A DNA stretch of 64,000 nt, from contig CM097882.1 in assembly GCA_044892505.1 (NCBI GenBank), positions 203,670,001 to 203,734,000 on the forward strand, in the 5' to 3' direction. The position numbers and the translations under genes are program-made. The notes below the pieces were generated by a model, which was not told where the DNA came from, did no database searches, and saw only the letters and a list, made by a program, of their open reading frames with translations. Below, in pieces: positions 32,431 through 32,853 of this stretch (the stretch's first letter is position 1; each line of letters opens with the position of its first letter). The DNA comes from Schmidtea nova (lineage: Eukaryota).

Positions 32431-32849
32431 TTGTTTAAAACAAATAAGTCATCCGACAAATGTTTTTTTCAAAAGATATTTCAAGAAATTGAAATAATGA
32501 AGCTAAGGCAGTCGGATGCGCTTGCAAACAGTTTCTGTTGAACACTTTTAGTGCGCAGAGGTGAAAATGAAATTCATACGCCATGTTTGCAAGTTACAGA
32601 TTATCTGTAGGACCTTGCATATTCAAGTGATGTTTTATCCAGTGTACCAGGTATAGTATATAACAAAATCTTTCGACTTTGTTTTATACTTACCTGGCGC
32701 GGAGAGAAATTTTCGCGTCTCCTGCATAGCACTGATGAGAGCCAAAAGCTCGAAACTAGTCTGCTATTGGGGATTTTCACTGGGTATCACAAAAAAAATC
32801 ACAAGCTTTTTTTTGTTTAAAACAAATAAGTCATCCGACAAATGTTTTT

Positions 32850-32853
<4 letters not shown>
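32431..32853 (+). repeat. 382-bp unit bounded by a 40-bp direct repeat (retrozyme/Penelope-like monomer plus partial repeat)
   Basis: TTGTTTAAAACAAATAAGTCATCCGACAAATGTTTTTTT occurs at both 32431 and 32813. The unit contains the hammerhead. Confidence 0.6.
32726..32767 (+). ncRNA. Minimal type I hammerhead ribozyme
   Basis: Helix I ATAGCA (32726-32731) / TGCTAT (32762-32767); core CTGATGA (32732-32738); helix II GAGC-CAAAA-GCTC; GAAA (32752-32755); palindromic mini helix III ACTAGT; GTC cleavage triplet ending at 32761. Confidence 0.9.

Follow-up and report, generated by a model that had tools for sequence, protein, structure and literature searches.

Non-LTR retrozymes have been described across animals, with platyhelminths included without detail. 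According to PMC7229834 and a 2026 preprint (Li, Clavereau and Pollet 2026, bioRxiv 10.64898/2026.07.22.740005), the metazoan elements are units of 150-450 bp with a GC content below 50% and no ORF of note. They are described as having no LTR, PBS or PPT, a canonical type I hammerhead, a predicted self-paired circle and a very high copy number. Mussel units measure 350-390 bp (PMC7229834). In axolotl HHR_Amex1 (Cervera and de la Pena 2020, PMC7229834) one helix III pair closes a palindromic tetraloop, and the monomer cleaves poorly and the dimer well. The 2026 preprint reports that one of nine retrozyme dimers cleaved in vitro and argues for an origin of retrozymes from the pLTRs of Penelope elements.

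Penelope-like elements themselves carry a 30-40-bp tail, form inverted joints and, in some clades, prefer (TA)n (PMC8557442). Their pseudo-LTR hammerheads have type I topology and a palindromic helix III, and a dimer model has been proposed for them (PMC4209133, PMC11167929). The minimal forms (min-HHRs) are described as having a shorter helix I, a helix II that is often longer, and an additional base between positions 9 and 10.1 (PMC4209133). In the anole Poseidon element PAc (PMC11167929) the start codon is located at the hammerhead, which cuts 26 nt after it. Reverse transcription begins at an internal position, 111-118 nt beyond the start codon, and uses mostly uncleaved RNA; two start sites flank the tail. 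A third group of short abundant repeats with a canonical type I hammerhead is represented by Schistosoma Sm-alpha and newt satellite 2 (PMC6765202). Our literature searches, PMC7761336 and 10.1101/721605 included, gave no described planarian retrozyme; the further invertebrate retrozymes of Figure S6 in PMC7229834 may include one. The S. mediterranea hammerhead in the supplement of PMC4209133 is reported there as a different, Penelope-linked motif.

The locus described here lies in a window of 64 kb, the whole stretch of Schmidtea nova DNA that was analysed (Table 1). It is probably a non-LTR retrozyme that was mobilised by Penelope-like machinery and is present here as a solo copy. The element agrees with the metazoan retrozymes in its unit size, GC content, lack of a notable ORF and of LTR, PBS and PPT, hammerhead type, highly self-paired predicted circle and very high copy number, and with a unit of 382 bp (GC 0.36) it falls in the size range of those of mussels. 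As in HHR_Amex1, its monomer can form a single helix III pair closing a palindromic tetraloop, here CUAG. Unlike the known retrozymes, the copy stands alone, runs 40 bp beyond one unit up to an (AT)n tract and lacks a target duplication; for its family, arrays and circular RNA are inferred. Outside the core, its sequence is unrelated to anything found.

Table 1 Features of the locus and its immediate neighbours (window coordinates)
Feature	Position	Strand	Basis
Broken HSP70 N-terminal fragment, not part of the retrozyme	31950..32195	+	Pfam HSP70, E 2.9e-7
Probable retrozyme monomer of 382 bp, non-coding, highly self-paired	32431..32812	+	Direct-repeat period; depth step; fold z
Canonical type I hammerhead	32718..32773	+	Descriptor, Rfam alignment, folding
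Overrun of ~40 bp into the next unit, repeating 32431-32471; read as Penelope-type "tail"	32813..32853	+	39 nt exact; family-level depth
(AT)39 microsatellite at the 3' junction; putative insertion target	32854..32931	.	Sequence
End of a second repeat family facing the (AT)n tract, not part of the retrozyme	32931..33203	-	Sequence

A descriptor scan located an intact hammerhead core at 32726-32767 (+) with a predicted cut 3' of C32761 (C17). Helix I has 6 bp (32726-32731 with 32762-32767), and the core strand CUGAUGA (32732-32738) leads into a 4-bp helix II (32739-32742 with 32748-32751) with G10.1-C11.1 and the loop CAAAA, followed by GAA. The palindrome ACUAGU (32755-32760) stands for helix III, and the conserved CUGANGA, GAAA and NUH are all present. 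Folding adds a distal part of helix I, in which 32718-32722 pairs with 32769-32773 beyond an internal loop. The complete type I hammerhead claimed in the preliminary description was recovered by the descriptor with its helices, core, palindrome and predicted cleavage site. It is the single standard-core match on both strands of the window; in 300 simulated windows the expectation was 0.06 matches per window with loose settings and 0.01 with strict ones (helix I of at least 6 bp, helix II of at least 4 bp). A weak descriptor match at 13752-13777 (-), inside a galactosyltransferase ORF (13404-14375, -), is probably due to chance.

No match in the window reached the gathering level of an Rfam family. 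A local search with Hammerhead_HH9 (RF02275) aligned all 77 model positions at 24.5 bits (E 0.0013; the family cut-off is 52), and the loop CAAAA of helix II and the helix I bulge fall on the corresponding consensus positions; helix III of the unit is reduced to the palindrome. Rfam matches to snoR11, SNORD37, RUF21, SraB and rli47 (E 0.1-4.8) were dismissed as chance. The motif shares type I topology, a palindromic helix III and the dimer model with the Penelope pseudo-LTR hammerheads. Unlike Penelope min-HHRs, it has a 6-bp helix I, a 4-bp helix II and no extra base after A9. Because the helix I and helix II lengths are combined with a short palindromic helix III, it is a canonical metazoan type I hammerhead under the definitions given in PMC4209133, and the label "minimal" that it had been given at first does not hold.

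The unit is delimited by a direct repeat that is exact over 39 nt from 32431 and from 32813, a spacing of 382, in agreement with the 40-bp repeat noted earlier; extended in the 5' direction, 46 of 48 positions are identical (32422-32469 and 32804-32851). The (AT)39 tract begins directly after the 3' end of this repeat. The first base of the copy lies 52 nt, and its last base 92 nt, downstream of a cut site, the two sites being one unit apart. Counted from the AUG in the core, the cut falls at 26 nt and the 3' end of the copy at 118-119 nt. The 64-kb window holds no second copy of the unit that we could find.

A clear target duplication is absent, the longest word common to the two flanks being 7 nt and lying away from the junctions. 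The 40-bp repeat was itself ruled out as a target-site duplication, because it is covered at family-level depth and is thus part of the element. It is best read as a Penelope-type tail. The insertion combines the 30-40-bp tail, the putative microsatellite target and the lack of a clear target duplication that characterize Penelope-type insertions. The tail shows no enrichment in A+C over the unit (0.49 in both). The tail length, the AT-rich target and the spacings from the AUG to the cut and to the 3' end also match those reported for PAc (PMC11167929), although for a single copy the agreement of the 26-nt and 118-119-nt distances may be coincidence.

Seven public sequencing runs contain part of the stretch, and contigs from four of them (X1, X4, X5 and X6) were aligned to it. 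Summed contig depth, which with thousands of contigs aligned is not an exact copy number, rises about 100-1000-fold at the limits of the 382-bp unit, with no such rise in the upstream flank. In X1 it goes from 272-924 (bins 32363-32440) to 177,294, with a peak of 777,957 over the hammerhead, and in X4 from 4,916-18,636 before the unit to 825,199, with a peak of 1.55 million. Both runs place the jump in the bin 32441-32479. Single diverged contigs have depths of 7-17 and 31-70. Because depth rises over the unit alone, the family has a very high copy number and does not include the upstream flank. In that flank, the HSP70 fragment is followed by unrelated sequence; the moderately repeated stretch at about 31934-32430, represented by tens of diverged contigs in X1 and X4, may represent a gene fragment that was captured or a divergent family of HSP70-like sequences.

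Among the contigs of the family, the bases of the window at 32516 and 32777 are minority alleles, neither of them in the core, and indels in A-runs and T-runs are common. In one variant group (16 contigs, agreement 0.73; judged by eye) the stem around 32485-32488 is kept and one GNRA loop is exchanged for another. Rare family copies have lost the hammerhead by deletion, and diverged partial copies with ragged 5' ends sit in unrelated sequence. Among the 15 joints listed (of 160), four are strand inversions inside the unit and none is a unit-length go-back joint.

A 385-nt contig of X5 spans 32426-32796 with four differences, and its remaining 14 letters are those of the unit end at 32793-32806, so that the tail runs into the head. 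This contig fits tandem arrays or circles, but it could also come from dispersed copies of unit plus tail that collapsed in the assembly graph, since the repeat exceeds the 31-letter word. By analogy with known retrozymes, head-to-tail tandem arrays of the unit are likely. Apart from position 32777 and an extra letter at 32664, the X6 contig (32586-32817) agrees with the window, and its hammerhead is therefore identical. The pieces in X5 and X6 (a soil metagenome and a second organism's run) are nearly identical to the unit, of low depth and with no real cover of the flanks. On a simple reading they are trace host DNA; they may also reflect a close relative or a transfer.

As a linear RNA the unit is predicted to fold at -116.1 kcal/mol (z -6.87), with none of 100 shuffles as good, and as a circle it reaches z -6.2 with 71% of its bases paired. 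The minus strand also folds well (z -5.4). In a control with 54 sampled 382-nt windows between 13,331 and 54,968 (10 shuffles each, those containing N excluded), the unit was the most stable, with z -5.3 vs -4.9 for the next. This second window, 27847-28228, adjoins a remnant of a hAT-like transposase. In the predicted monomer fold the palindrome is base-paired to the core of the same molecule (p 0.7-0.9), which would switch the ribozyme off. The double-hammerhead fold has -34.2 kcal/mol vs -32.6 for two monomer minima; the lowest-energy fold of the dimer (-35.4) is not the active form, and the pairing probability of the palindromes is about 0.03. In an energy model without tertiary contacts, the double hammerhead is thus predicted to be feasible and not dominant.

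The unit is without coding signal. No Pfam family fell below E 0.05 in three frames of 32194-32732, and the longest AUG-initiated ORF on the circular unit has 62 codons. The frame 32194-32730 resembled the 3' end of a GIY-YIG domain by eye. This candidate was rejected, as the frame matches no Pfam family and the sequence upstream is outside the family by depth; among 209 candidates of 315-2000 aa it also has no homolog at E <= 1, which is weak evidence. A 65-aa query for the frame through the AUG in the core has one match among 1.84 billion proteins, to a bacterial-type fibronectin repeat protein (E 5e-4), which we attribute to chance. The preliminary description had proposed a single monomer of a retrozyme family followed by a partial repeat, and this is supported by the depth confined to the unit, the tail-to-head contig of X5, the strong folding and the lack of coding signal.

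The first alternative is that the locus is an autonomous Penelope-like retrotransposon truncated at its 5' side, of which the pseudo-LTR and the tail remain, and not an independent retrozyme. The tail, the (AT)n junction and the inverted joints are all hallmarks of Penelope elements (PMC8557442), and the diverged copies with ragged 5' ends would fit as well. Given the reported descent of retrozymes from pLTRs, a related autonomous element could well be present. Against this, the tail repeats sequence only 382 bp upstream, which leaves no room for an ORF of 2.5 kb, and the family depth ends at the edge of the unit. Unlike Penelope-like elements, the locus has no ORF with RT plus GIY-YIG that Pfam, homology searches or tblastn could find, neither upstream nor in the unit.

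We compared the hammerhead with metagenome loci using a pattern of the hammerhead core plus ACUAGU. Out of 33 matches in 31 loci, 31 form a helix II of at least 4 bp, from which we take the pattern to pick real hammerheads; none of the 31 loci is similar to the unit beyond the core. The loci with RT motifs contain 14 of the 33 matches, and 9 of 35 ORFs scanned (of 69 listed) match RVT_1; both counts speak for the Penelope-like end. In all 14 of these matches helix I is 3-5 bp; the 6 bp of the present unit recur in 4 of the 19 matches without RT motifs. Although the numbers are small, this division is consistent with the distinction drawn in the literature between the motifs of Penelope elements and those of retrozymes. 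By tblastn, 24 ORFs from the RT-motif loci had no match in the window. On this evidence a Penelope-like end is unlikely. With a narrower pattern, no matches were obtained in viral contigs and prokaryotic genome contigs.

Among the metagenome loci, three contigs of 1.2-1.3 kb (L002, L016, L029) combine a satellite tobacco necrosis virus-type coat protein with a hammerhead core, and L029 has a terminal repeat with a period of 1195. L005, L009 and L017 are poor in ORFs and carry a canonical hammerhead with a 6-bp helix I and the ACUAGU palindrome; L005 and L009 repeat with periods of 1021 and 727 and are retrozyme-like, with sequences unrelated to the unit. In L006, L010, L019, L021 and L028, ACUAGUC opens a long helix III instead. 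The hammerheads of L006 and L021 adjoin an ORF like gamma-glutamyl cyclotransferase, and L010, L019 and L021 have short repeats 430-436 bp apart.

Evidence for Penelope-type activity in this genome comes from the other side of the same (AT)n tract, where the end of a second repeat family carries a hammerhead-like U3-A8 core (32988-33020, -). Others start at 6221 (+), 7426 (+) and 7411 (-), giving 4 matches in the window vs 0.025 expected for either core. The motif has a 3-bp helix II, a 4-bp helix I and an AUAU palindrome. Degenerate copies of the family lie at 7771-7838 and 12362-12619, an inverted pair spans 7324-7512, and the ends of the family adjoin (AT)n or (TAA)n tracts. Cores of the U3-A8 type have been described in Penelope elements of schistosomes (PMC4209133). 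The second family probably represents the ends of a Penelope-like family, and its position across the tract supports Penelope-type activity in the genome. No Penelope ORF was found within the window by tblastn.

The window, which is AT-rich animal DNA, holds other genes and mobile elements. A single-exon MAB21 gene (37051-38337, -) sits on a long branch; it is 59-66% identical to named animal proteins, none of which is a close relative. Remnants of hAT-like elements occupy 22358-24870 and 28153-30011, and a mariner-like remnant with terminal inverted repeats 20137-21384. From about 40000 to 64000 extends a Burro-like giant gypsy element with a RING ORF (42283-42756), a gag with zinc knuckles, a Monjiviricetes-type fusion glycoprotein, pol and ankyrin ORFs. 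As in this element, the Burro elements of dugesiid planarians are described with env between gag and pol plus ankyrin repeats (PMC6431247), a layout that points to a probable planarian host. Within it, about 60.5-63.8 kb repeats about 49.0-52.3 kb almost exactly, either as a partial tandem duplication or as an assembly artefact.

A second alternative, which we rate slightly below the Penelope-like end, is a dispersed SINE-like family of monomers comparable to schistosome Sm-alpha, consisting mostly of solo units with an overrun, cleaving in trans or poorly and yielding few or no circles. The copy at this locus is solo, the contigs hold diverged partial copies in unrelated sequence, and the cyclic X5 contig can be explained without arrays. 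If equal solo copies were numerous, they should share their ends, whereas none of the 20 loose-end rows listed (of 1103) for X1 and X4 has a fixed start at 32431 or end at 32853. A tRNA-derived head or Pol III promoter was also sought and rejected: no tRNA gene and no A box were found in the unit, in which it differs from Sm-alpha as described in PMC6765202, and for the B box only look-alikes with one mismatch were seen, without a control. A satellite-like repeat amplified at the DNA level, with the hammerhead as a catalytically silent relic, would accord with the predicted blocking of the core in the monomer, with the inactivity of eight of nine Xenopus retrozyme dimers (as reported in bioRxiv 10.64898/2026.07.22.740005) and with the rare copies that delete the hammerhead, but it is highly improbable given core bases that are all intact here and in the X6 contig, strong RNA structure across the whole unit, a GNRA loop kept in the variant group and a junction of the retrotransposition type.

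A solo retrozyme copy moved by Penelope-like machinery is thus the reading we retain. The copy is slightly longer than one 382-nt non-coding unit. Going by what is known of the retrozyme family, tandem copies elsewhere would be transcribed, two hammerheads would base-pair with each other via ACUAGU and each would cleave 3' of its GUC, and the resulting 382-nt monomers would be ligated to circles. The insertion itself may go back to a Penelope-like reverse transcriptase/endonuclease provided in trans, which nicked the (AT)n tract. The enzyme would then have begun copying internally, some 92 nt downstream of the cut site, on a template that was either circular or an uncleaved multimer, and would have continued over one unit and a further 40 nt or so. 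The template cannot have been a cleaved linear monomer, because the copy crosses the cut site and exceeds the unit length; we infer an uncleaved multimer or a circle. With a single ribozyme and one cut site per transcript, the locus cannot itself release a unit-length RNA or a circle, and any circle must come from tandem copies elsewhere. The locus is therefore a dispersed product, called a "solo" copy in the nomenclature of the 2026 preprint.

As retrozymes form an established class, the element itself comes as no surprise; it adds a probable planarian retrozyme family. Its tail and the geometry of its insertion are relevant to the question of which autonomous element mobilises retrozymes in animals. 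A more specific reading, that this is a young, very abundant planarian retrozyme whose insertion ends at the mapped distance of the internal Penelope reverse transcription start from the hammerhead, is possible, though we lean against it. If true, the sequence would bear a footprint of retrozyme mobilisation by Penelope proteins in trans, which the published accounts cited here propose and do not demonstrate, and the link could be tested in the animal by RNAi of the autonomous element. In a planarian host, an animal that regenerates and is amenable to RNAi, circular RNAs derived from ribozymes could be put to the test.
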